This document shows, one piece after another, positions 1 to 9,888 of a stretch of DNA of 9,888 nucleotides; the first letter of the stretch is position 1, and each line of letters opens with the position of its first letter. Under the pieces are notes generated by a model. The model was not told where the DNA came from, did not search any database, and saw only the letters and a program-made list of their open reading frames with translations. Both the position numbers and the translations under genes were made by a program. The DNA is from a virus. Taxonomy: Duplodnaviria > Heunggongvirae > Uroviricota > Caudoviricetes. The stretch covers positions 1 through 9,888 of IMG/VR virus record IMGVR_UViG_2529292908_000017, one strand, 5' to 3'.

Positions 1-1242
1 ATGGCGAGAAAAACACACCCATTAACCACAGTGCAGATCAAAGCAGCCAGACCAGCGCAAAAGGAGTACACCCTGCAGGACGGCGGAGGGCTTTTTCTCC
101 TGGTCAAACCGTCTGGATCAAAACTCTGGAGATTTTCCTACTACCGACCATCGGACAAAAAAAGAATATTGCTGAGTTTTGGATCGCTTGAAGATGTTTC
201 CCTGGCTGATGCCAGAAAACGCCGTAGCGAGTACAGGACGTTAATCAGTGCCGGAACTGACCCGCAGGACCACGAGAGGCAAAAAAGAGAGACAGAGGCC
301 CGAAGACAAGGGAACACGTTCGAAAATGTGGCGGCGGCATGGTACCAGGTGAAAATCAGCCAGAATCTGGCCCCCAACACGATTAAAGACATCTGGCGTT
401 CGCTGGATAAATATGTATTCCCGTTCATCGGCAACACGCCAATAGATACCCTCACCGCCCGAAGGTTCGTTGAAGTGCTTACCCCCATCAAGGAGCGCGG
501 CAACCTGGAAACACTCAAGCGGGTTTTACAGCGCGTTAATGAGGTAATGGATTACGCCGCCAACAGTGGGCTGATTGATGCCAATCCGGCTATGAATGTG
601 CGTAAGGCGTTTCCCTCACCTGTAAAAAAACATATGCCAACAATCCGCCCCGAACAGCTGCCGGAGCTTATGCAGGCTTTATCAGTATCGGCAACAGAAC
701 GGCAGACCAGATTACTGATTGAATGGCAGTTACTGACCGTAACCCGTCCCGCCGAAGCGTCATCAACGCGGTGGGATGAAATCAACCTGGACGCGAAGCA
801 ATGGACGATACCTGCCGGACGCATGAAGATGCGCAGGGATCACGTTATCCCGCTTTCCGGTCAGGCTATGGCGGTGCTGGAGGCCATGAAACCAATCAGC
901 CACCACCGCAATTACGTTTTCCCAAGTCTGAAAGACCCACAGCAGCCGATGAACAGCCAGACAGCTAACGCAGCATTGCGGCGTATGGGATTCGCTGGCG
1001 TGCTGGTGTCTCATGGATTACGCGCCATATTCAGCACAGCAGCGAACGAGGAAGGATTCGAGCCGGACGTAATAGAGGCGGCACTTGCCCACGTCGACAC
1101 CAACGAAGTTAGACGGGCATACAACCGGAGCAACTACATAGAAAAACGCATCGTGCTGATGCGCTGGTGGGGCGAATTTGTCGAGGCTGCGGCGACGGGC
1201 GTAACCCTCGCCAGTGGTAAAAGGGGTATCCGAGCCGTGTAG
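1..1242 (+). CDS. int: Tyrosine recombinase / integrase, P4-type (satellite / genomic-island family)
   Basis: 413-aa ORF starting at window base 1. N-terminal arm-type region (GGGLFLLVKPSGSKLWRFSYY) typical of P4-family integrases; C-terminal catalytic region with HGLRAIFST (H-x-x-R) and RAYNRSNY (tyrosine nucleophile region). Recognition by eye, no search. Confidence 0.9.
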   Translation: MARKTHPLTTVQIKAARPAQKEYTLQDGGGLFLLVKPSGSKLWRFSYYRPSDKKRILLSFGSLEDVSLADARKRRSEYRTLISAGTDPQDHERQKRETEARRQGNTFENVAAAWYQVKISQNLAPNTIKDIWRSLDKYVFPFIGNTPIDTLTARRFVEVLTPIKERGNLETLKRVLQRVNEVMDYAANSGLIDANPAMNVRKAFPSPVKKHMPTIRPEQLPELMQALSVSATERQTRLLIEWQLLTVTRPAEASSTRWDEINLDAKQWTIPAGRMKMRRDHVIPLSGQAMAVLEAMKPISHHRNYVFPSLKDPQQPMNSQTANAALRRMGFAGVLVSHGLRAIFSTAANEEGFEPDVIEAALAHVDTNEVRRAYNRSNYIEKRIVLMRWWGEFVEAAATGVTLASGKRGIRAV

Positions 1243-1319
1243 CTGTACAGAAAACCAGTAAAAACTACGAAAACCATGTAAAACCGTCGTATAATTGCAT
1301 CAAATTTAACGACAAGGCC

Positions 1320-1571
1320 GTGAAACATGAAACCGTTAAGATGCAAAAAAATATCAGATGCAATTGCGACGGGCTGCAACTGGCCCTGATGGTTCAGCAT
1401 GAATTTTGGTCAACCTACGATCCGGAGGACAGGACGACGGCCCCATCAAAAAAACAGGTAGTAGATTTTCTGGTATCCCGTGGCGCTTCCAGAAATCTGG
1501 CGGTAAGTATTGATAAGGTCGTACGTCCGGCATCTATGAAGATCGGAGGCAGGCCCAAAAAATGGCGGTAA
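1320..1571 (+). CDS. Hypothetical small protein (83 aa)
   Basis: ORF with AAGG about 10 nt upstream of the ATG, ending 10 nt before a strong intrinsic terminator. A TATAAT hexamer lies at about 1290-1295. No family recognised. Confidence 0.45.
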   Translation: MKHETVKMQKNIRCNCDGLQLALMVQHEFWSTYDPEDRTTAPSKKQVVDFLVSRGASRNLAVSIDKVVRPASMKIGGRPKKWR

Positions 1572-1580
1572 CAATCCTGG

Positions 1581-1606
1581 AAGCGGCAGAAATGCCGCTT
1601 TTTTTA
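1581..1606 (+). terminator. Rho-independent terminator
   Basis: Stem AGCGGCA / TGCCGCT (7 bp) with GAAA loop followed by a T6-7 run, immediately after the 1320..1571 ORF. Confidence 0.7.
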
Positions 1607-1629
1607 TAATTCCATTTCAAATCATCAAT

Positions 1630-1735
1630 ATAAAAAACGGTGTATACCGTTTAAAAACGGTGGGAACTGTTTTTACCCATATCCGATGATTTACCGTATT
1701 TGTCACCGGAATACACCGGATTCACAAGGTAAATC
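1630..1735 (+). promoter_or_regulatory. Putative promoter/operator region upstream of alpA
   Basis: 10-bp direct repeat AAAAACGGTG at 1633-1642 and 1653-1662; inverted half-sites ACGGT-N4-ACCGT at 1637-1650; direct repeat CACCGGA at 1704-1710 and 1714-1720; AAGG RBS at 1726-1729 before the ATG at 1739. Function inferred. Confidence 0.3.
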
Positions 1736-1738
1736 ACG

Positions 1739-1944
1739 ATGGAAGCAATCAGAAAAATTATCTTTCGCCAGGAAGTAAAAAAATTATCCACATCAAGGCA
1801 GACAGCACGCTGCAAAGCATGATCAACGCCGGAGAATTTCCGCAGGGTTTTCGCGTTGGTTTACGCCGTCGCGGATGGTATGAGGATGATGTGTTGGCCT
1901 GGCAGAAAGAACGCGAACAGGAAGCACGCGGAACGGCTGCTTAA
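1739..1944 (+). pseudogene. alpA: AlpA-family (prophage CP4-57-type) HTH regulator, apparently disrupted by a 1-nt frameshift
   Basis: Frame from ATG 1739 reads MEAIRKIIFRQEVKKLSTSRQTARCKA then stops (TGA 1820-1822). The -1 frame continues LQSMINAGEFPQGFRVGLRRRGWYEDDVLAWQKERE to TAA 1942-1944. Joined, they match the AlpA pattern (TG-x-SR-x-T-IY-x-hh-x-G-x-FP ... G-W-x-E-x-D-h-x-x-W). Length 206 nt is not a multiple of 3; shift localised to about 1803-1811. Confidence 0.6.
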
Positions 1945-2092
1945 CGGGTATCACAGATATGACAAACACGAAAAAAGCGGCCCCGATATGGAGCCGCCTT
2001 TCTGAACAATTAACCCGCTGCGCCTTATGTGTATGTGATCCCAAACATAAGCACGGGGATGATAGCCGCTATCAGGCTGGTGGGCAATGCAA

Positions 2093-2266
2093 TCAGTCTG
2101 GTTCAGTTCGTTGCCATACCTGCAATGAGCGCTTTTCCCTATACTCTTTAAGGAATTGCTCAAGGGCAAAAGCACATGGTGCGAATCTTTCTGATTCATG
2201 CTCTATCTTTCTGCGCCGTCTTTTCCGTGCCGGTGATAATGTTTTGGTCAATTCTTTATCGGTCAT
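2093..2266 (-). CDS. Hypothetical small basic protein (57 aa from second ATG; 62 aa from first)
   Basis: Minus-strand ORF MTDKELTKTLSPARKRRRRKIEHESERFAPCAFALEQFLKEYREKRSLQVWQRTEPD, with AGGA 7 nt upstream of the internal ATG (+ coordinates 2264-2266). Composition is protein-like, unlike the overlapping 186-aa + ORF. No homologue recognised. Confidence 0.3.
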   Translation of the reverse strand: MTDKELTKTLSPARKRRRRKIEHESERFAPCAFALEQFLKEYREKRSLQVWQRTEPD

Positions 2267-2692
2267 TGTGTTGTCCTGCATAGCAATACGCCGTAATACC
2301 TCACACCACGGCGCTGGTGATGGTTACTCCTGCTCTTTGGCCTTGCGCCGCTGGCGGCGTTTGATCTCACCTTTAACGGCAGTAACTATAAATTGCGCCT
2401 TGCTTTCACCTTCATCTAAATTTTTTCTAAGTCTGCAACAACATCATGCGGGAATCTGGCATTTAACTGTTGCGACTTATTATTTGTTGAACCTGTTGCC
2501 ATTACTGAATCCTCTCTAAGTTGGTGCGATTCAGTATACACAAAAAAAATTTCAGAGAAAGGCTTGAAGTGCGATTCACTTACTGATAGGTTAAAAACGA
2601 ATGGTGCGATGCACCAAACAACAACGCCCCGCAGTGGTGGCACACATGCAGGGCGTCTAACCACCAACGATAACGAGAGTATCGAGGTAGCT

Positions 2693-2896
2693 ATGAGAAA
2701 TCATACCACACACCCGCAAGGGCGGGACTCGCACGACCTGAATAAATACATCTGGCGTTTTATCGCCCTGAGCACGGCACAACCGCGCGTGATTACCATT
2801 GAGGCCACCAGCGAACAGGAAGCACGCCTGCAATCCCCGGCTGGCTGCGTGATGGTATTCGCTGCCCGTATTCGCCAGGGGTCACATCATGCGTAA
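2693..2896 (+). CDS. Small protein, paralogue A of a tandem pair; possibly Ash / Icd-like family (unverified)
   Basis: ATG 2693 preceded by GAGG (2684-2687). C-terminal motif YIWRF ... EATSEQEARLQSP ... FAARIRQGSHHA is repeated in the next gene, with synonymous third-position differences (CGT/CGC, CGC/CGT). The longer TTG start at 2564 in the ORF track has no credible RBS. Confidence 0.5.
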   Translation: MRNHTTHPQGRDSHDLNKYIWRFIALSTAQPRVITIEATSEQEARLQSPAGCVMVFAARIRQGSHHA

Positions 2897-3575
2897 AAAC
2901 CGCTTGCAAAAAATTATCACGGGGCTGTATGCTTCCCCCGTCGCCCACATGGCGACCGGGTTTAGCAGCCTGAATACATCTGGCGGACAGCCGCCCACAT
3001 CCGATAAGCGGTTTTTTTGTGTCCGTAAACCTACCCATACCCGCATTATGGCGGGGCGTAACGGGGGAGCCTTTGTGCTCGCTGGTTTCCAGATGACCAG
3101 TCTGCTAACCCTGTTACGTCTCGCCACCATGTTTAGCAGCGTAGTAGCGAGACTCCTTAAAATTCATCTGGGAGCCTTTCACATGGCTGTATTCGCACGC
3201 CCTTATTTTGTCTGGCGCTTTATGCAGTGCCTGACAGACAGTATTGCAATATTCACCGTTACCGCTGCCACTGAGCGCGAAGCACGTGCACAGCTGCCGC
3301 ACGCACATCTTATTTTTGTCGCCCGTATTCGCCAGGGGGGGGGAGTCATGCATAAAATACCCTTTGATGTTCTTGTTCATTCTGAAAACGCATTAATCCG
3401 CGCAAAGGAAATGGACGCATTACTACTTAAGTTAATTGATGTGCCGGAAAGTGGCGATGAATCTGATTCAATGATGTTTTCTGCCGTGCGTACGCTATTA
3501 ACGCCTGTTATTAATGAATTAAATACAGTGATGGCAATTCACGAGAATAATAAAGCGCAGCACAACGGAGAATAA
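2889..3575 (+). CDS. Composite ORF: N-terminal segment of unknown nature, then paralogue B (from internal ATG 3183 with GGAG RBS), read through a G9 tract into a 75-aa C-terminal segment
   Basis: Continuous 228-aa ORF; ATG 2889 overlaps the stop of the previous gene (ATGCGTAA). Residues from 3183 (MAVFARPYFVWRF ... TAATEREARAQLP ... FVARIRQGGG) parallel paralogue A. G9 tract at 3335-3343; with G10 the paralogue would end ...QGGGSHA* (compare A: ...QGSHHA*) and a separate ORF would start at ATG 3348. Confidence 0.4.
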   Translation: MRKNRLQKIITGLYASPVAHMATGFSSLNTSGGQPPTSDKRFFCVRKPTHTRIMAGRNGGAFVLAGFQMTSLLTLLRLATMFSSVVARLLKIHLGAFHMAVFARPYFVWRFMQCLTDSIAIFTVTAATEREARAQLPHAHLIFVARIRQGGGVMHKIPFDVLVHSENALIRAKEMDALLLKLIDVPESGDESDSMMFSAVRTLLTPVINELNTVMAIHENNKAQHNGE

Positions 3576-3580
3576 AAAAC

Positions 3581-3880
3581 ATGAAAAATAAAAATTCTGG
3601 CGTTACTGCCAGCGGCCCCGCTCGTCCTGAATTTATGAACGGCGATATTTACCGCGATAAATATGGCGGCATGGTAACGATTAAAGGCGTGGCAGAACGG
3701 CGCATCACCTACCGTCGTGAAGGCTACGAATATGATTGCGTGATGCCTGTTTATCAGTTTCGGCGTGATTTTTCTCTGGTACAGGCAGCGCCCCGCAGTA
3801 AACCAACCAGCAGGGAGAAAGCACGCGCCAATATTCAGGAAATAAAAAAGATGCTTAACGTATTCAGGGGTAAAAAATGA
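3581..3880 (+). CDS. Hypothetical protein (99 aa), translationally coupled to the primase
   Basis: ORF with GGAG upstream; its TGA stop (3878-3880) overlaps the primase ATG (3877-3879) as ATGA. Protein-like composition; family not recognised. Confidence 0.6.
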   Translation: MKNKNSGVTASGPARPEFMNGDIYRDKYGGMVTIKGVAERRITYRREGYEYDCVMPVYQFRRDFSLVQAAPRSKPTSREKARANIQEIKKMLNVFRGKK

Positions 3881-5625
3881 AACTGGCACCGAACGTAAAA
3901 AAACAGCCACGCGGAATAAAACACAAAGACACAGAGGTAATTATTTTCGCGGGTAGTGATGCCTGGTCGCACGCGAAACAATGGCAGGAGCAGGATGGCC
4001 CCGCATCCGGCGATAATGTGCCGCCTGTGTGGCTTGGGCCAAATCAGCTTGCCGAACTTGATGCACTGAAAATTGTTCCGGATGGGAAAAAGCGCGTAAG
4101 GCTGTACCAGGCCGGAGAACTGGATTTGGTGGAGACCAAAAAGATTGGTCAGAAGCTGGCGGCAGCAGATATTCAGGACGCAAATTTTTACCCCGAAGGA
4201 ATGCACGTCCAGAAGTGTGAAAACTGGCGGCGCTATCTGAATGCTGAGCGTGAAAATATTGCCGCAGGGCTTACCATGCCGGAGCAGAAAAATACGCAAC
4301 TGGCACAAATGGCAGACAGTGAGCGCGCGCAGCTGCTTGCCGAGCGCTTTGATGGCGTTTGTGTGCATCCTGAAAGTGAAATCGTTCACGTATGGCGCGG
4401 CGGGGTATGGTGTCCGGTCAGCACAATGGAGCTGAGCCGCGAAATGGTGGCGATCTATTCAGAGCACAGGGCCACTTTCAGCAAGCGCGTAATCAATAAC
4501 GCCGTGGAAGCGTTAAAAGTTATTGCCGAACCAATGGGCGAGCCGTCCGGCGATTTGCTGCCGTTCGCCAATGGTGCGCTTGACCTGAAAACGGGGGAAT
4601 TTTCCCCGCACACGCCGGAGAACTGGATCACCACGCACAACGGCATTGAGTACACGCCACCAGCACCAGGGGAGAACATCCGCGATAACGCGCCAAACTT
4701 TCATAAATGGCTTAAGCACGCAGCCGGAAAAGACCCGCGCAAGATGATGCGTATATGTGCCGCGCTGTACATGATTATGGCGAACCGGTACGACTGGCAG
4801 ATGTTTATTGAGGCCACCGGAGACGGCGGGAGCGGTAAAAGTACATTCACGCACATAGCCAGCCTTCTGGCAGGGAAACAGAACACGGTAAGCGCTGAAA
4901 TGACATCGCTTGATGATGCTGGTGGACGTGCGCAGGTTGTCGGGAGTCGTCTTATCGTCCTGGCTGACCAGCCGAAATATACAGGCGAAGGAACGGGCAT
5001 CAAGAAAATCACGGGCGGTGACCCCGTGGAAATTAACCCGAAATATGAAAAGCGTTTTACGGCGGTAATCAGGGCGGTGGTGCTGGCGACCAACAACAAC
5101 CCGATGATATTCACCGAACGGGCCGGAGGTGTGGCACGTCGTCGCGTGATTTTCCGTTTCGACAATATCGTCAGTGAGGCCGAAAAAGACAGGGAGCTAC
5201 CGGAAAAGATTGCGGCTGAAATCCCTGTGATTATCCGCCGATTACTGGCGAACTTTTCCGCCCCTGAAAAGGCACGGGCTTTACTCATTGAACAGCGTGA
5301 CGGTGATGAAGCACTGGCGATAAAGCAGCAAACGGATCCGGTTATTGAGTTTTGCCAGTTCCTGAATTTTCTGGAGGAAGCGCGCGGCCTGATGATGGGG
5401 GGCGGTGGCGATTCAGTGAAGTACACGACCAGGAACAGCCTTTACCGCGTCTATCTGGCGTTTATGGCATACGCAGGCAGGAGCAAACCGCTAAACGTAA
5501 ATGACTTTGGCAAGGCTATGAAGCCAGCCGCGAAAGTTTACGGACATGAATATATTACGCGGAAAGTTAAGGGAGTAACGCAGACTAACGCAATAACAAC
5601 AGACGATTGCGACGCGTTTTTATAA
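3877..5625 (+). CDS. Phage/plasmid primase-helicase, P4-family C-terminal domain / D5-like SF3 NTPase (satellite pri-rep type)
   Basis: 582-aa ORF with AGGGGT RBS. Walker A P-loop ATGDGGSGKST, followed by motifs typical of D5 / P4-alpha-type helicases (LIVLADQP Walker B-like, VVLATNN). Immediately followed by an iteron array. N-terminal ~300 aa not assigned. Confidence 0.88.
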   Translation: MKLAPNVKKQPRGIKHKDTEVIIFAGSDAWSHAKQWQEQDGPASGDNVPPVWLGPNQLAELDALKIVPDGKKRVRLYQAGELDLVETKKIGQKLAAADIQDANFYPEGMHVQKCENWRRYLNAERENIAAGLTMPEQKNTQLAQMADSERAQLLAERFDGVCVHPESEIVHVWRGGVWCPVSTMELSREMVAIYSEHRATFSKRVINNAVEALKVIAEPMGEPSGDLLPFANGALDLKTGEFSPHTPENWITTHNGIEYTPPAPGENIRDNAPNFHKWLKHAAGKDPRKMMRICAALYMIMANRYDWQMFIEATGDGGSGKSTFTHIASLLAGKQNTVSAEMTSLDDAGGRAQVVGSRLIVLADQPKYTGEGTGIKKITGGDPVEINPKYEKRFTAVIRAVVLATNNNPMIFTERAGGVARRRVIFRFDNIVSEAEKDRELPEKIAAEIPVIIRRLLANFSAPEKARALLIEQRDGDEALAIKQQTDPVIEFCQFLNFLEEARGLMMGGGGDSVKYTTRNSLYRVYLAFMAYAGRSKPLNVNDFGKAMKPAAKVYGHEYITRKVKGVTQTNAITTDDCDAFL

Positions 5626-5636
5626 TTTTTTGCAAT

Positions 5637-5865
5637 GTCTGTCTACCCTGTCTACCTGAGTAAAGAAAAATACATTTAATTCAGTATATTAACTTAGGTA
5701 GACAGCCTTTTTTCACTGTCTACCTACTATCTACCCTCTCTACCTGATTTTACCTGAATCAGACAGGGAGGTAGATACGGGGTAGATAGTGGATAAAAGC
5801 ACTCTACCCCGCTGAAAGCCGCGCCATTACTGGCATGAGAGCCAGTAAGGTAGATAAGGTAGACA
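5637..5865. repeat. Iteron array, putative replication origin
   Basis: About 11 copies of the heptamer GTCTACC / GGTAGA(C/T) in both orientations (e.g. 5641-5647, 5650-5656, 5697-5703, 5718-5724, 5770-5776, 5781-5787, 5849-5855, 5858-5864) around an AT-rich core (about 5657-5695), directly downstream of the primase-helicase gene. Confidence 0.65.
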
Positions 5866-5913
5866 AGGGGAGGCACAACTCAAAACTTTTTAAACGAGGG
5901 GGTAAAAATAAAA

Positions 5914-6171
5914 ATGCGCACATCAGGAAAACTTAATAATCAGAAGAAGCAGCATAACCGCGCCATTGACCTTACAGAGCACTGGCTGAGAGTGGCGATA
6001 AAAATCATCGACCGCAACACGGGGGAAGGATACGCGAAAGCACATCCCGACCTGATAAGCGCATTCATGACCACGGCGGCAGCAAACTTTGCCACGCTGA
6101 CAGAACGGGAGATTGCCGAAGCGGAACAGGTGACAACCATCAACGTTAAAACCGGAGAGCAGACAGCATGA
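5914..6171 (+). CDS. Hypothetical protein (85 aa), coupled to ssb
   Basis: ORF with GAGGGGG upstream; its stop overlaps the next ATG (ATGA at 6168-6171). No family recognised. Confidence 0.5.
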   Translation: MRTSGKLNNQKKQHNRAIDLTEHWLRVAIKIIDRNTGEGYAKAHPDLISAFMTTAAANFATLTEREIAEAEQVTTINVKTGEQTA

Positions 6172-6590
6172 CAGCACAGATAGCGGCTTACGGGCGGCTG
6201 GTGGCTGACCCGCAGTTAAAGACCACCAGCAAAGGGACACAAATGGCGATGGCGAGTATGGCGGTTCCCCTGCCATGCAGCCAGGCAGATGACGGAACGG
6301 CGACGATGTGGTTATCTGTCCTGGCGTTTGGCAGACAGGCCGACGCACTGGCAAAACACCACAAAGGCGAACTCCTGAGCGTGGCGGGTAATATGCAGGT
6401 GAGCCAGTGGACAGGCCAGAACGGCGAAACGCGGCAGGGCTGGCAGGTTATCGCAGACAGTGTAATCAGTGCCAGAACGGCGCGACCGGGCGGCAAAAAA
6501 GGTCAACAGGGGCAGGCTACTGACGCACTGAACAGGGCAAAACAACAGGCGGGAAATGATGATCCGTACGGGGATAACATACCGTTTTAA
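6168..6590 (+). CDS. ssb: Single-stranded DNA-binding protein (SSB-like OB fold with acidic C-terminal tip)
   Basis: 140 aa. N-terminal OB region aligns by eye with E. coli SSB (YGRLVADPQLK vs VGNLGQDPEVR; WLSVLAFGRQADALAKHHKGE vs [21 protein letters not shown]). Gly/Gln-rich linker and C-terminal DDPYGDNIPF resemble the SSB tail DDDIPF. Confidence 0.78.
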   Translation: MTAQIAAYGRLVADPQLKTTSKGTQMAMASMAVPLPCSQADDGTATMWLSVLAFGRQADALAKHHKGELLSVAGNMQVSQWTGQNGETRQGWQVIADSVISARTARPGGKKGQQGQATDALNRAKQQAGNDDPYGDNIPF

Positions 6591-6606
6591 GCAACGAGTA
6601 ACAGAG

Positions 6607-6628
6607 GCCGGAGCAATCCGGCTTTTAT
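6607..6628 (+). terminator. Rho-independent terminator after ssb
   Basis: Stem GCCGGA / TCCGGC with GCAA loop followed by TTTTAT. Confidence 0.65.
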
Positions 6629-6861
6629 CAGTTGAGTCCGTCACACTACGCAAAAAAAAGCCGGAATATTCCGACCCTTTCATCACCAAAGAGAATAATT
6701 TATGTCTTTGAACTTGTAACGCTGTACAGAATGACACGTAACGCCGGATAAATAAACGAAGATTGAAACTTTGCACACTATTGCATAGCAATGCATAAAG
6801 ATGCCAAACAAGGCAGATGATAAAATTAACGCGACACTTTTACTAAGTATTAAGAGGTTAT

Positions 6862-7902
6862 ATGAGTGATTTATATTCGCCAGCCATGTTAATACAGGTT
6901 GTTAATGCCGAAGATATTCAATGGCAGATTAATTCTTTATTTATAAACCTGTTTTTTAAGCGAGTCGTTACATTTGAGACGCGGGATATTGCGCTTGATA
7001 TTATTGACGATCCAGACATCCCGATGGCTGCATTTTGTTCCCCTATGGTTGGTAGTAAAGTCTCACGCGATGAAGGCTACGAATCAAAAGTAATTCGCCC
7101 TGGCTATATGAAGCCAAAAAGTAGTATCGACCCAAATAAAATAGCCGTTCGTCAACCAGGCGTATCACCTGAACAATTCAATGCATATTCATCACGCAGT
7201 TTCAAAATAAAGCGAGCGTTAGTAAGACAAGCGCAGGCAATTCGTGCGCGTATTGAGTGGCTTGCTGTTCAGGCGGTTACAACGGGGAAAAATATCATTG
7301 AAGGCGATGGAATTGAACGTTATGAACTGGACTGGAATATAAAACCACAAAATATTATCACGCAGTCCGGCGGCACGGAGTGGAGCGGTAGAGATTTATC
7401 AACATTTGATCCAAACGATGACATCGAAGAGTACGCAGAAATCAGCGAAGGTACTACAAATATCATCGTAATGGGCCGCAACGTATGGAAAAAATACCGC
7501 GCCTTTAAAGCAGTAAAAGATTGCCTTGATACTCGACGGGGATCTAATTCCATTCTTGAAACGGCCCTGAAAAATCTTGGGGATTCTGTAAGCTTCAAGG
7601 GTTACGTTGGCGATGTTGCTATTGTGGTATATAGCGGACGTTATACCGACGAGGACGGCAAAGAAAAATATTTCCTTGATCCTGATTTGATGGTGCTTGG
7701 CAACACATCATTACAGGGCATCGTTGCCTACGGTGGCATTCAGGATCCTGAGTTAATCAGAATGGGGCTGACTAAAGCCGAACTTGCGCCGAAAAATTAC
7801 ATCGTACCAGGTGATCCGGCTATTGAATATGTGCAGACGCACAGCGCACCGCAACCAATACCGGCCCGCATCAATCGTTTTGTTACCGTTCGCATTGGTT
7901 AA
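6862..7902 (+). CDS. Major capsid protein, phage lambda gpE family
   Basis: 346 aa with AAGAGG RBS. Long colinear matches to remembered lambda gpE: NIITQSGGTEWSGRDLSTFDPNDDIEEYA (lambda NITQSGGTEWSKRDKSTYDPTDDIEAYA); FKAVKDCLDTRRGSNSILETALKNLGDSVSFKGYVGDVAIVVYSGRY ... MVLGNT (lambda FKAVKEKLDTRRGSNSELETAVKDLGKAVSYKGMYGDVAIVVYSGQY ... MVLGNT). Confidence 0.9.
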   Translation: MSDLYSPAMLIQVVNAEDIQWQINSLFINLFFKRVVTFETRDIALDIIDDPDIPMAAFCSPMVGSKVSRDEGYESKVIRPGYMKPKSSIDPNKIAVRQPGVSPEQFNAYSSRSFKIKRALVRQAQAIRARIEWLAVQAVTTGKNIIEGDGIERYELDWNIKPQNIITQSGGTEWSGRDLSTFDPNDDIEEYAEISEGTTNIIVMGRNVWKKYRAFKAVKDCLDTRRGSNSILETALKNLGDSVSFKGYVGDVAIVVYSGRYTDEDGKEKYFLDPDLMVLGNTSLQGIVAYGGIQDPELIRMGLTKAELAPKNYIVPGDPAIEYVQTHSAPQPIPARINRFVTVRIG

Positions 7903-7911
7903 GGGGGAGCA

Positions 7912-8253
7912 ATGGCTACTCATTACACTGAACTCATGGCTGGCACTGAAGCACTGGTTACTACGTTGGGGATATTTTCAGCTAATAAAGGGGTAATTCC
8001 TGCATTTACGCCACTGATGCAAGAAGATGCAACTGGTGCACTGGTGGTATGGGATGGAACGAGCGCAGGCAAAGCTGTTTATGTTTCCGCTGTACAAATC
8101 GATACAGCGACAAAAACGCAGGCTCAGGTTTATAAAACCGGCGTCTTAAATGTTGATGCTCTGAACTGGCCTGAGTCTGTAACACAACTATCAGCAAAAG
8201 TTGCTGCGTTTGTTGGCTCAGGTATTTCTGTTCAGCCGCTGGCACGTGTGTGA
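7912..8253 (+). CDS. Head decoration protein, phage lambda gpD family
   Basis: 113 aa with GGGGGAG RBS. Matches remembered gpD: TPLMQEDATGALVVWDGTSAGKAV (lambda [24 protein letters not shown]), YKTGVLNVDALNWPE (YKSGTFRYEDVLWPE), AAFVGSGISV (TAFAGTAISIV). Confidence 0.85.
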   Translation: MATHYTELMAGTEALVTTLGIFSANKGVIPAFTPLMQEDATGALVVWDGTSAGKAVYVSAVQIDTATKTQAQVYKTGVLNVDALNWPESVTQLSAKVAAFVGSGISVQPLARV

Positions 8254-8262
8254 GGTACGAGA

Positions 8263-8607
8263 ATGATTGAAAGAGATAGTCAGCTACGAGAGCTATTAGA
8301 TATCGATGACAAAATGAGTTTAAGCGAGCGCCTTGTTGATATGGATCAGGTAGTGGAGCTTACAACCCTTAGCCGTCGCACATTGCTAAACCTTGAGGCT
8401 CGCGGAGAGTTCCCCGAACGCGTACAGGTTACGAAAGGGCGCAAGGCATGGTATTTAAGCGAGGTTGTTGCGTGGATTAACAACATTCCGCGCGCATCAA
8501 ATTATTGCCTTGTTCCCACCCCCGAAAAACCTGATGCGGCGTTATGCCTCAAGATTGAACGCGCCAGGCGTAATGCCCTGAAAGGACGCAATAAGTTGAT
8601 TGGTTGA
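8263..8607 (+). CDS. AlpA/MerR-like helix-turn-helix DNA-binding protein (114 aa)
   Basis: GAGG RBS. Central segment VVELTTLSRRTLLNLEARGEFPERVQVTKGRKAWYLSEVVAWI fits the AlpA / excisionase-type HTH pattern, with N- and C-terminal extensions. Lies between the decoration gene and cos. Confidence 0.65.
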   Translation: MIERDSQLRELLDIDDKMSLSERLVDMDQVVELTTLSRRTLLNLEARGEFPERVQVTKGRKAWYLSEVVAWINNIPRASNYCLVPTPEKPDAALCLKIERARRNALKGRNKLIG

Positions 8608-8631
8608 TGAAATTAGGGCCCGTTCTGGCTG

Positions 8632-8830
8632 GCGGGTCCTTTCCGGCGATCCGGCAGGCTACGGGGCGGCGACCTCGCGGTTTTTCGCTATTTATGAGCC
8701 TTTTCAGGGGGGTGGTGGTGGTTTTGTTGTTTGATCTATCTTTATGAATGAAAAGGGAAAGATGCAAGCAATACACCAACCTGAAGCAGTAATTAAGTTG
8801 GTGTATTAATGAAATCTCATCTGATGAACA
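8632..8830 (+). other. cos site 1 (+ orientation): lambda-like cosQ/cosN (cosN 8664-8675, GGGCGGCGACCT) followed by a divergent cosB-like region up to the terS start
   Basis: GCGGGTCCTTTCCGGCGATCCGGCAGGCTACG-GGGCGGCGACCT-CGCGGTTTTTCGCTATTTATGA is near-identical to the remembered lambda cos junction. Downstream lacks lambda R-site-like GAAACGACA elements but has an 11-bp perfect inverted repeat (8770-8780 / 8797-8807). Confidence 0.75.
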
Positions 8831-8837
8831 AAAAAAC

Positions 8838-9350
8838 ATGGCGAAAAGCTGCCGTGTAAGTGCGACAGCGTTCGACAAGTGGGGAGTAACTCCCGTTGAG
8901 CGTAAAGGCCGTGAGGCGTTTTATGATGTTGCCAGCGTGATAGAAAATAGGGTTAACAATGCAATTAGCCAGCTTATAAACGACAAAGGCGAGATTGACG
9001 ATGATGAACTTTTACGAGTCAGGATCAGATTACTGACAGCACAGGCAGAGGCGCAGGAACTTAAAAACGATCGCGATCGCGGTGACGTGATTGATACTGA
9101 GTTTTGCCTGTACGCGCTTTCAAAGCTGGCGAGTCAGATTTCATCAATCATGGACAGCCTCCCGCTTACTATGCAAAGGAGCTTCCCACAGATTACCCCC
9201 GCCATGCTGGATAGGCTTAAAAGGGAAGTGGTTAAAGCCTGTAATGCCAGTGCCAGAGTTGCCGACAACCTCCCACAGATACTGGCTGATTACTTGAAAG
9301 AAACAACCGGAAACGTACCGGAAAAGTTGCTACAGAAGAAAGGCGAGTAA
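8838..9350 (+). CDS. Terminase small subunit, lambda Nu1 family, with divergent N-terminal DNA-binding region
   Basis: 170 aa. C-terminal two-thirds matches remembered Nu1: LTAQAEAQELKNDRDRGDVIDTEFCLYALSKLASQISSIMDSLPLTMQRSFPQ (lambda LTRAQADAQELKNARDSAEVVETAFCTFVLSRIAGEIASILDGLPLSVQRRFPE). N-terminal ~45 aa only loosely similar. An upstream ATG at 8824 (MNKKTW...) is out of frame by 1 nt across an A7 tract. Confidence 0.85.
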   Translation: MAKSCRVSATAFDKWGVTPVERKGREAFYDVASVIENRVNNAISQLINDKGEIDDDELLRVRIRLLTAQAEAQELKNDRDRGDVIDTEFCLYALSKLASQISSIMDSLPLTMQRSFPQITPAMLDRLKREVVKACNASARVADNLPQILADYLKETTGNVPEKLLQKKGE

Positions 9351-9369
9351 CAGACGCGCAATTATTGAA

Positions 9370-9580
9370 CAAAACTGAGAAACGACATGAAAGCGTCATA
9401 AATCGCCATTTTAGATGATTACCGTGTCGTTTCTTTTTATTGTGTATCTATTTAAAAACAAATAGTTATGTTCGAGAAGTACCGACATGCTTTTTCCAGA
9501 AAATTTTTCATAAACAGATAAAAACCGCGAGGTCGCCGCCCCGTAACGGGTCCATAATTCCAGGAAGGACCCGACGACAC
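9370..9580 (-). other. cos site 2 (inverted): cosN at 9530-9541 with a lambda-like cosB (R3 / IHF-I1 / R2 / R1-like elements) on the terS-proximal side
   Basis: The reverse complement reads ...CCCGTTACG-GGGCGGCGACCT-CGCGGTTTTTATCTGTTTATGAAAAATTTTCTGG ... CGAACATAACTATTTGTTTTTAAATAGATAC ... AAAGAAACGACACGG ... CATGTCGTTTCTCAG, paralleling the remembered lambda left end (cosN, I1 IHF site CGTCATAACTTAATGTTTTTATTTAAAATACC, R2 GGAAACGACAGG, R1 CTGTCGTTTCC). No terminase gene follows in this orientation. Confidence 0.7.
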
Positions 9581-9606
9581 CAGACAATCAGAACGATGGG
9601 TGCACA

Positions 9607-9888
9607 ATGACAGAAGCCGAAATACTGGGATTAATCCGCCGTGCTGGTGGAATCAGCCAGCAGACTGACGAACAGGCCACGCAGCCGGACAGCGTGACAG
9701 CCGAAAATTATGCGCGTGTTGTTGCTGAGGTGATGCGCCGTGATGGTATCCAGCTTAATGATGTGGATATGCGCAACATACGGATCCGCGTTCTTGAAAT
9801 GCTGGCCTACCGTCGCCGCGTGCAGACGTACAGGGAAAAAGCAAAAATTACGTACCACTGGAAGAAGCCGGAGCGGTTACGGCGGTAA
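9607..9888 (+). CDS. Hypothetical protein (93 aa)
   Basis: Complete ORF ending at the last base of the window (TAA 9886-9888). Weak RBS. No family recognised; Arg-rich C-terminus. Confidence 0.45.
   Translation: MTEAEILGLIRRAGGISQQTDEQATQPDSVTAENYARVVAEVMRRDGIQLNDVDMRNIRIRVLEMLAYRRRVQTYREKAKITYHWKKPERLRR

Follow-up and report, generated by a model that had tools for sequence, protein, structure and literature searches.

The stretch of DNA analysed here, hereafter the window, comprises 9,888 nucleotides (nt), positions 1 to 9,888 of IMG/VR virus record IMGVR_UViG_2529292908_000017, and is 100% identical to contig AIFX01000059.1 of Escherichia coli DEC6C (L003 among the related loci that we compared). 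Judged by its gene content, the element appears to be a phage satellite of the capsid-forming phage-inducible chromosomal island (cfPICI) type. A run of nine G (G9; 3335-3343, plus strand) lies at the junction of two of its small genes: icdB, which encodes the second of two Icd-like paralogues (3183-3334 up to the tract, plus strand), and orf75, which encodes 75 amino acids (aa; 3348-3575, plus strand). Positions 3330-3354 are spelled CGCCA GGGGGGGGG AGTCATGCATAA, in the wider context GTCGCCCGTATTCGCCA GGGGGGGGG AGTCATGCATAAAATACC, and the tract falls at the Shine-Dalgarno sequence and stop/start overlap ATGCATAA between icdB and orf75. It is the only G/C run of at least nine in the 9888-base window; dinucleotide-preserving shuffles predict 0.04 such runs, and 6 of 200 shuffles held one or more.

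As a preliminary description of this DNA had claimed, the nine G join paralogue B (icdB) in frame to a further 75 aa. The mechanically called open reading frame (ORF) 2889-3575 (228 aa) passes through the tract, and the fused icdB-orf75 frame (3183-3575, plus strand) encodes 130 aa from ATG 3183 or 228 aa from ATG 2889. In-silico editing also bore out what had been said of other lengths. With ten G, the upstream gene ends ...RIRQGGGSHA-stop, the stop lying within ATGCATAA, and a separate gene begins at ATG 3348. With seven G, icdB ends ...QGGSHA-stop and orf75 is again separate. With eight, QGG is followed by 17 unrelated residues, in agreement with the predicted stop after about 17 aa, and five G likewise give a 17-residue tail; G6, G9, and G12 all produce the icdB-orf75 fusion. 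In the diverged relative L019 the same position spells GGGGGTGAGTCATG, and the G run appears to be a degenerate Shine-Dalgarno sequence in which one T has turned to G.

The two halves of the fused frame match separate gene families. The first 51 residues from ATG 3183 match NCBIfam NF033153 'Icd-like' (1e-13), and the stand-alone family phrog_2196 matches the last 75 residues over its full length (residues 1-72 aligned to profile positions 1-74). Third-codon-position excess, which is present in icdA, icdB, orf75, and the DUF4222 gene, stands at 8/5/16 in icdB and 21/15/29 in orf75. Among the best 120 homologue clusters of the upstream ORF, 119 end 5-7 residues past ARIRQ and none is fused (0/120), and tails such as QEVTHA-stop, QGVSHA-stop, and QGKTYAQ-stop indicate that a long G run is unnecessary. 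Homologue clusters of orf75 (n=69) are mostly of 75 aa and come exclusively from Escherichia and Shigella. The AlphaFold model of Orf75 is a two-helix hairpin (pLDDT 86), for which a Foldseek search against the PDB gave no match with E <0.6. The other paralogue, icdA (2693-2896, plus strand; 67 aa; NF033153 6.3e-19, phrog_6196 9e-44; third-position excess 15/13/26), is annotated as a 67-aa gene in L003-L010. Its product is 41% identical to IcdB and ends QGSHHA-stop, as the preliminary description had pointed out.

Between the two Icd-like genes lies a gene for a C4 antisense RNA of the P1/P7 immI type (3044-3131, plus strand; full-length match to RF01695 at 72.7 bits against a gathering threshold of 45, E 4.7e-13). 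In P1 and P7, C4 RNA occludes the ribosome-binding site of icd, whose translation is needed for ant to be expressed. The module in the window runs icdA, a1/b1, C4, a2/b2, icdB, orf75, DUF4222, primase, and positions 2952-3141 share 79% nucleotide identity with the c4 region of P7/P1. The C4 pairing elements are a hairpin loop, CCAGATGA (3089-3096), and a single-stranded CTGCTAA (3102-3108). The upstream, a1/b1-like targets (2962-2983, plus strand) consist of TTAGCAG (2962-2968) and CATCTGG (2977-2983), which have exact complementarity to C4 positions 3102-3108 and 3089-3095, respectively; they align with the a1/b1 region of P7, and the Rfam family c4-a1b1 (RF03163) matches the corresponding place in P7 and in locus L020. 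The downstream, a2/b2-like targets (3133-3175, plus strand), TTAGCAG at 3133-3139 and TCATCTGG at 3164-3171, are also complementary to C4, and this pair abuts the GGGAG Shine-Dalgarno sequence of ATG 3183, the icdB start. Aligned to P7, the 'a' elements are identical, and the 'b' loop and both 'b' targets differ jointly (P7 has a CACAATC loop with ATTGTG and GATTGTG). This covariation of the b' loop with the b targets implies that the module would have its own immunity specificity, separate from that of P7. The window therefore holds a C4 family match, flanking target pairs, and an Icd homologue directly downstream of C4, as expected of an immI module. An Ant antirepressor coupled to icd was not found: orf75, which occupies the slot that ant1 fills after icd in P1/P7, gave no Ant match and matched no family in Pfam or NCBIfam. 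A scan for generic sigma-70 promoters and for terminators showed no enrichment.

The comparison with P7 also bears on where icdB begins. The P7 icd ATG aligns with ATG 3183, IcdB and P7 Icd are 50% identical over 44 residues, and in P7 c4 is followed after 50 nt by icd and then by ant1, which overlaps the icd stop by 4 nt. The complete C4 system (2952-3175) lies inside the ORF annotated as a 154-aa 'Icd-like protein' from ATG 2889. Because the stretch 2889-3182 is without the third-codon-position excess (2/4/4, 5/6/2, 4/3/3) that the real genes have, the usual 154-aa annotation probably extends too far upstream, over the C4 gene, and the true start of icdB is probably 3183. ATG 2889 as the start of a true 98-codon N-terminal extension of icdB was rejected on the lack of third-position bias, the C4 gene inside, and the alignment of the P7 icd start with ATG 3183. 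Thus, the stop/start overlap previously described at 2889-2896 is present as sequence, but its ATG is probably not a real gene start, given the C4 RNA and the missing codon-position excess. Downstream, in the same transcription unit as icdB and orf75, lie a DUF4222 gene (3581-3880, plus strand; PF13973 1.7e-24) and a P4-family primase gene (3877-5625, plus strand; TIGR01613 1.3e-31), together spanning 3581-5625. Because the b2 target abuts the icdB Shine-Dalgarno sequence, as in the geometry of immI, the tract would by analogy be the coupling point of a C4-controlled operon leading into replication genes.

The length of the tract varies among relatives. On flanks identical to those of the window, over at least 271 nt to the left and at least 221 nt to the right of the tract, we found G5 (L012), G7 (L001, L013, L018), G9 (L003-L007, L009), and G10 (L008, L010); among other haplotypes, L002 has G6, and G7 in L015 stands against G8 in L017. 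Exact-protein look-ups for the window haplotype returned 598 contigs with G7, 12 with G10, 9 with G6, 5 with G5, and 3 with G8, along with about 14 contigs with G9 from at least 4 isolates (3-6 that carry the orf75 variant of the window and 8 that carry a different one); no contig had G4, G11, G12, or G13 in these look-ups. G7 accounts for about 93% of the alleles of this haplotype and the canonical-frame alleles (G7 or G10) for about 95%, and runs of at least G9 are limited to about 26 contigs. In complete E. coli genomes, a 7-base spacing was seen in 59 of 60 among the matches listed; ZH063 has 6, and its gene is tagged as a pseudogene by PGAP. Scans of metagenomes and IMG/VR added 7 loci, and a pattern scan of one genome per species gave no match. 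Hence, related strains do not have the single fixed length that the preliminary description had named as evidence against slippage, but range from G5 to G10.

This variability is specific to the tract. As a control, the 27 other homopolymers of at least 6 nt in the window were invariant among the same loci, apart from differences confined to L003 and to L007. Only 2 single-nucleotide polymorphisms (SNPs) in 7.5 kb separate L010 from the window, yet L010 has G10 rather than G9, and L004 and L009, with 0 SNPs to the window, have G9. Because lengths vary on identical flanks and the control homopolymers are fixed, the tract appears to be a specific slipped-strand hot spot.

We consider it probable that G9 is genuine, a heritable allele produced by slipped-strand loss of one G (-1) from a poly-G run that evolved from the orf75 Shine-Dalgarno sequence, and that it represents noise rather than an evolved switch. 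The lengths observed suggest the following allele history. An ancestral-type GGGGGTGA, with icdB ending QGVSHA-stop as in L019, would have given way to G7 (QGGSHA-stop), the common stable state; G10 (QGGGSHA-stop), again in frame, would have followed in a minor lineage, and the loss of one G would have produced G9. That fused alleles (G6, G9) outnumber those in the third frame (G5, G8) fits a bias toward one-base contraction from G7 or G10. In the G7 and G10 alleles, ribosomes would terminate in ATGCATAA atop the orf75 start. In the G9 allele, ribosomes coming from icdB would bypass the ATGCATAA stop and make a 130-aa IcdB-Orf75 fusion, as predicted by translation of the sequence only; free Orf75 would probably still be made, because the G-rich Shine-Dalgarno sequence and ATG 3348 are intact. 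In our view the polymorphism is mutational noise, the run having grown long enough to slip, and it looks tolerated or mildly deleterious. The tract would then belong to a known kind of feature, homopolymer slippage giving a frameshift or fusion allele.

Several points weigh against reading the polymorphism as noise, or the tract as correctly called. First, the contig counts are not phylogenetically independent. Second, the off-frame share in the long-tract lineage is high (about 14 G9 and 3 G8 versus 12 G10), as at contingency loci. Third, G9 is present on two satellite backbones and in two lineages of the host chromosome (L003 versus L005, 40 SNPs in a 3.1-kb chromosomal flank); therefore, either slippage is recurrent or the fused allele is fit enough to spread. 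Fourth, the position of the tract is regulatory, which favours a switch, and a true phase-variable locus would yield the same inter-strain pattern. Finally, the DEC6C assembly is error-prone at homopolymers.

The alternative that survives best is true phase variation, in which the poly-G would be kept because reversible slippage among G10/G7, G9/G6, and G8/G5 diversifies the behaviour of the C4/Icd module. The states would be separate coupled genes (G10/G7), a fusion (G9/G6), and IcdB with a 17-residue tail, with ribosomes overrunning the orf75 start (G8/G5). All three frames do occur in nature on identical flanks, the tract is the sole hypervariable homopolymer of 28 in the window, near-identical elements such as L010 and the window (2 SNPs) differ at it (G10 versus G9), and it sits at the regulatory coupling point downstream of C4. 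Its G9-G10 lengths are also within the range of classical poly-G contingency loci. Thus, the junction has a slip-prone homopolymer where length alters the reading frame, and that length is polymorphic among close relatives on identical flanks, two of the marks of a contingency locus. A third mark is missing, in that the tract is not kept as a repeat across homologues: most are without it and end QEVTHA-stop, QGVSHA-stop, QGKTYAQ-stop, and so on.

Other observations also argue against a selected switch. G7 makes up about 93% of the haplotype's alleles, 59 of the 60 listed complete genomes have the 7-base spacing, long tracts are restricted to a small lineage, and one clone retains a constant G9 in 3-4 isolates (the element is free of SNPs among L003, L004, and L009, as is the 3.1-kb chromosomal flank between L003 and L004). 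In addition, a non-coding tract expands in the same way in sister satellites, where there is no frame to switch. L016 and L017 carry this second poly-G between a 53-aa ORF and a small-terminase-like ORF, upstream of the latter (L016 1694-1702, minus strand, G9; L017 10697-10705, plus strand, G9), and in 220 complete E. coli genomes its most frequent length is 7 bases, against four instances of G9, two of G10, and one of G11. Another poly-G tract, of eight, is found in L019 (9073-9080, minus strand) ahead of a homologue of the window's ORF at 5914. Finally, because orf75 keeps its own Shine-Dalgarno sequence and ATG in every allele, any on/off contrast would be weak. Of the slipped-strand phase variation first put forward for this tract, slippage between strains (lengths 5-10 on identical flanks) stands, and the selected, reversible switch does not; phase variation as a programmed process is unproven, and we judge it unlikely on balance.

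A broader form of this idea, in which the satellite poly-G tracts (the icdB/orf75 junction and the second tract, which precedes the small-terminase gene of sister elements) act as contingency loci of this E. coli cfPICI family, strikes us as distinctly doubtful. If it were true, slippage at the junction would randomly re-wire the C4-RNA/Icd operon between coupled but separate genes, fused genes, and a frame that overruns the orf75 start, and clonal hosts would carry satellites with differing thresholds for induction or helper interference. Homopolymer contingency loci are uncommon in E. coli, and phase variation here would be a rare example of repeat-mediated phase variation in this species, and one on a phage satellite.

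A sequencing or assembly indel, in which the DEC6C draft under-calls a true G10 and the two genes are in fact separate, is very improbable. The concern has a basis, since the DEC6C assembly is one base short at four A/T runs relative to L004, L009, and L010, from which it otherwise differs by 0-2 SNPs (1777-1783, A7/A8; 2421-2426, T6/T7; 6652-6659, A8/A9; 8830-8836, A7/A8), and two of these shortfalls break genes. All four are likely sequencing under-calls. The shortfall at 1777-1783 truncates a 68-aa AlpA-like helix-turn-helix (HTH) gene to a 41-aa ORF at 1819-1944, that at 2421-2426 disrupts a minus-strand gene of the YlcI/YnfO family (59 aa), and that at 8830-8836 lies just upstream of the start of a Nu1-like gene. 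L007, also G9, looks homopolymer-error-prone as well (A6 versus A7 at 3897). However, the identical fused 228-aa product is encoded in SRR9913975, in GCA_012373615.2, in GCA_002465385.1 and GCA_014139485.1 (mutually identical), and in SRR491164. L004 (SRR9913975) and L009 (GCA_012373615.2) have G9, 0 SNPs to the window, and none of its four homopolymer shortfalls; L007 (SRR491164) and L005/L006 likewise have G9, the last two in the other E. coli lineage and with a different replication module. In 8 further contigs, the G9 fusion is joined to another orf75 variant. Moreover, assemblers can tell 9 from 10, because G10 was resolved in 12 other contigs. Because independent assemblies share G9 without the window's four errors, the G9 allele appears to be real and not an assembly artefact, and it is very likely real in DEC6C itself. 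The sequencing indel initially offered as the alternative to phase variation is thus rejected for this allele.

Recoding, in which slippage of RNA polymerase, or a -1 frameshift of the ribosome on G GGG GGG, would give fused and separate products from one allele, has almost no likelihood. The 9-10 nt homopolymer does have a -1 frame that restores ...SHA-stop, and long homopolymers can provoke transcriptional slippage in E. coli. However, the run is not conserved among homologues, unlike genuine recoding sites, and RNA folding around the tract revealed neither a downstream frameshift stimulator nor an attenuator (less structure than in shuffles, z = +2.3). Slippage in E. coli is also documented chiefly for A/T runs, and the codon GGG slips poorly in the A site.

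The junction has also changed in other ways. Protein P0226 is a singleton 130-aa Icd-orf75 fusion (…RIRQEGVMNKIPF…) from a lineage without a long G run, and other one-base losses in the Shine-Dalgarno sequence can therefore also fuse the junction. In another type of satellite (L021, 1337-1754), a single 65-aa Icd-like gene is joined to orf75 via the same G7 junction, and no C4 RNA is present. The tail of icdA (CAGGGGTCACATCATGCGTAA, 2876-2896) is paralogous to the icdB/orf75 junction, which suggests that it may be a relic of such an Icd-orf75 junction into which a c4-icd unit recombined. In several hundred matching complete E. coli genomes, homology to the window stops within the tract (3339). 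In one of these (L020, 3150-3230), icdB ends QGVGL-stop and a different 76-aa gene comes next via a TTATGA overlap. Satellite modules therefore also meet at a mosaic (recombination) boundary in the Shine-Dalgarno/overlap region.

The window starts with the gene for a tyrosine integrase (1-1242), and yejK, yejL, and yejM lie upstream of it on the DEC6C contig. Further genes include the Phage_cap_E major capsid gene (6862-7902), the AlpA-like HTH remnant, and genes for SSB, an HDPD decoration protein, AlpA, and a Nu1-like small terminase. The assignment to the cfPICIs draws on the integrase, primase, SSB, Phage_cap_E, HDPD, AlpA, and Nu1-like genes seen in the window, which stops before the right end of the island. 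In L005, a tRNA gene (2813-2886) is found ~220 nt upstream of the satellite integrase gene, between yejM and int and outside the window, and is presumably the attachment site. Our searches of the published literature turned up neither an account of the C4/Icd/orf75 junction nor one of its poly-G polymorphism; the 'icd' of a paper on HE-PICIs denotes isocitrate dehydrogenase.

These results have consequences for annotation, biology, and method. The 228-aa 'Icd-like protein' of DEC6C (EHV60269.1) is best read as a frameshift allele of two genes and not as a new protein. The tract would mark where coupling takes place in a P1-type antisense-RNA immunity module, borrowed by a satellite and placed ahead of its replication genes. 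Natural G7, G9, and G10 alleles offer ready isogenic material for work on the coupling of Icd to the downstream gene in satellites. More generally, invariant control homopolymers taken together with independent assemblies can separate true homopolymer polymorphism from assembly error.

Among known systems, the tract resembles the poly-G/C contingency loci of Neisseria, Haemophilus, Campylobacter, and Bordetella in having a run of G9-10 inside or at the end of an ORF, frame-shifting changes in length, and polymorphism between close relatives in which other homopolymers are fixed. It differs in that the satellite tract is recent and not conserved, its modal G7 is stable, and the downstream gene has its own start, so that no clean ON/OFF would result; the variation here is also known from comparison between strains. 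A study of poly-G tracts in Bordetella draws this same distinction between between-strain polymorphism and within-culture variation (PMC1891110). The element itself agrees with cfPICI and P4-like satellites of Enterobacteriaceae in the gene content of the window and in its integration, next to yejM. Icd-like genes were present in most of the Enterobacter satellite elements studied in one survey (PMC13612085).

The closest likeness is to immI of P1 and P7. Both have a full-length C4 RNA with both target pairs in place and b2 at the icd ribosome-binding site, and in both the next gene overlaps the icd stop, through ATGA in P7 and ATGCATAA in the G7 and G10 alleles of the satellite. In contrast to immI, the module in the window belongs to a satellite rather than a P1-like plasmid prophage, and another Icd-like gene, icdA, precedes C4. 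The gene after icd encodes a predicted helical hairpin of 75 aa unrelated to Ant, with DUF4222 and the primase coming next, and in the window the icd stop itself is gone through the G9 frameshift.

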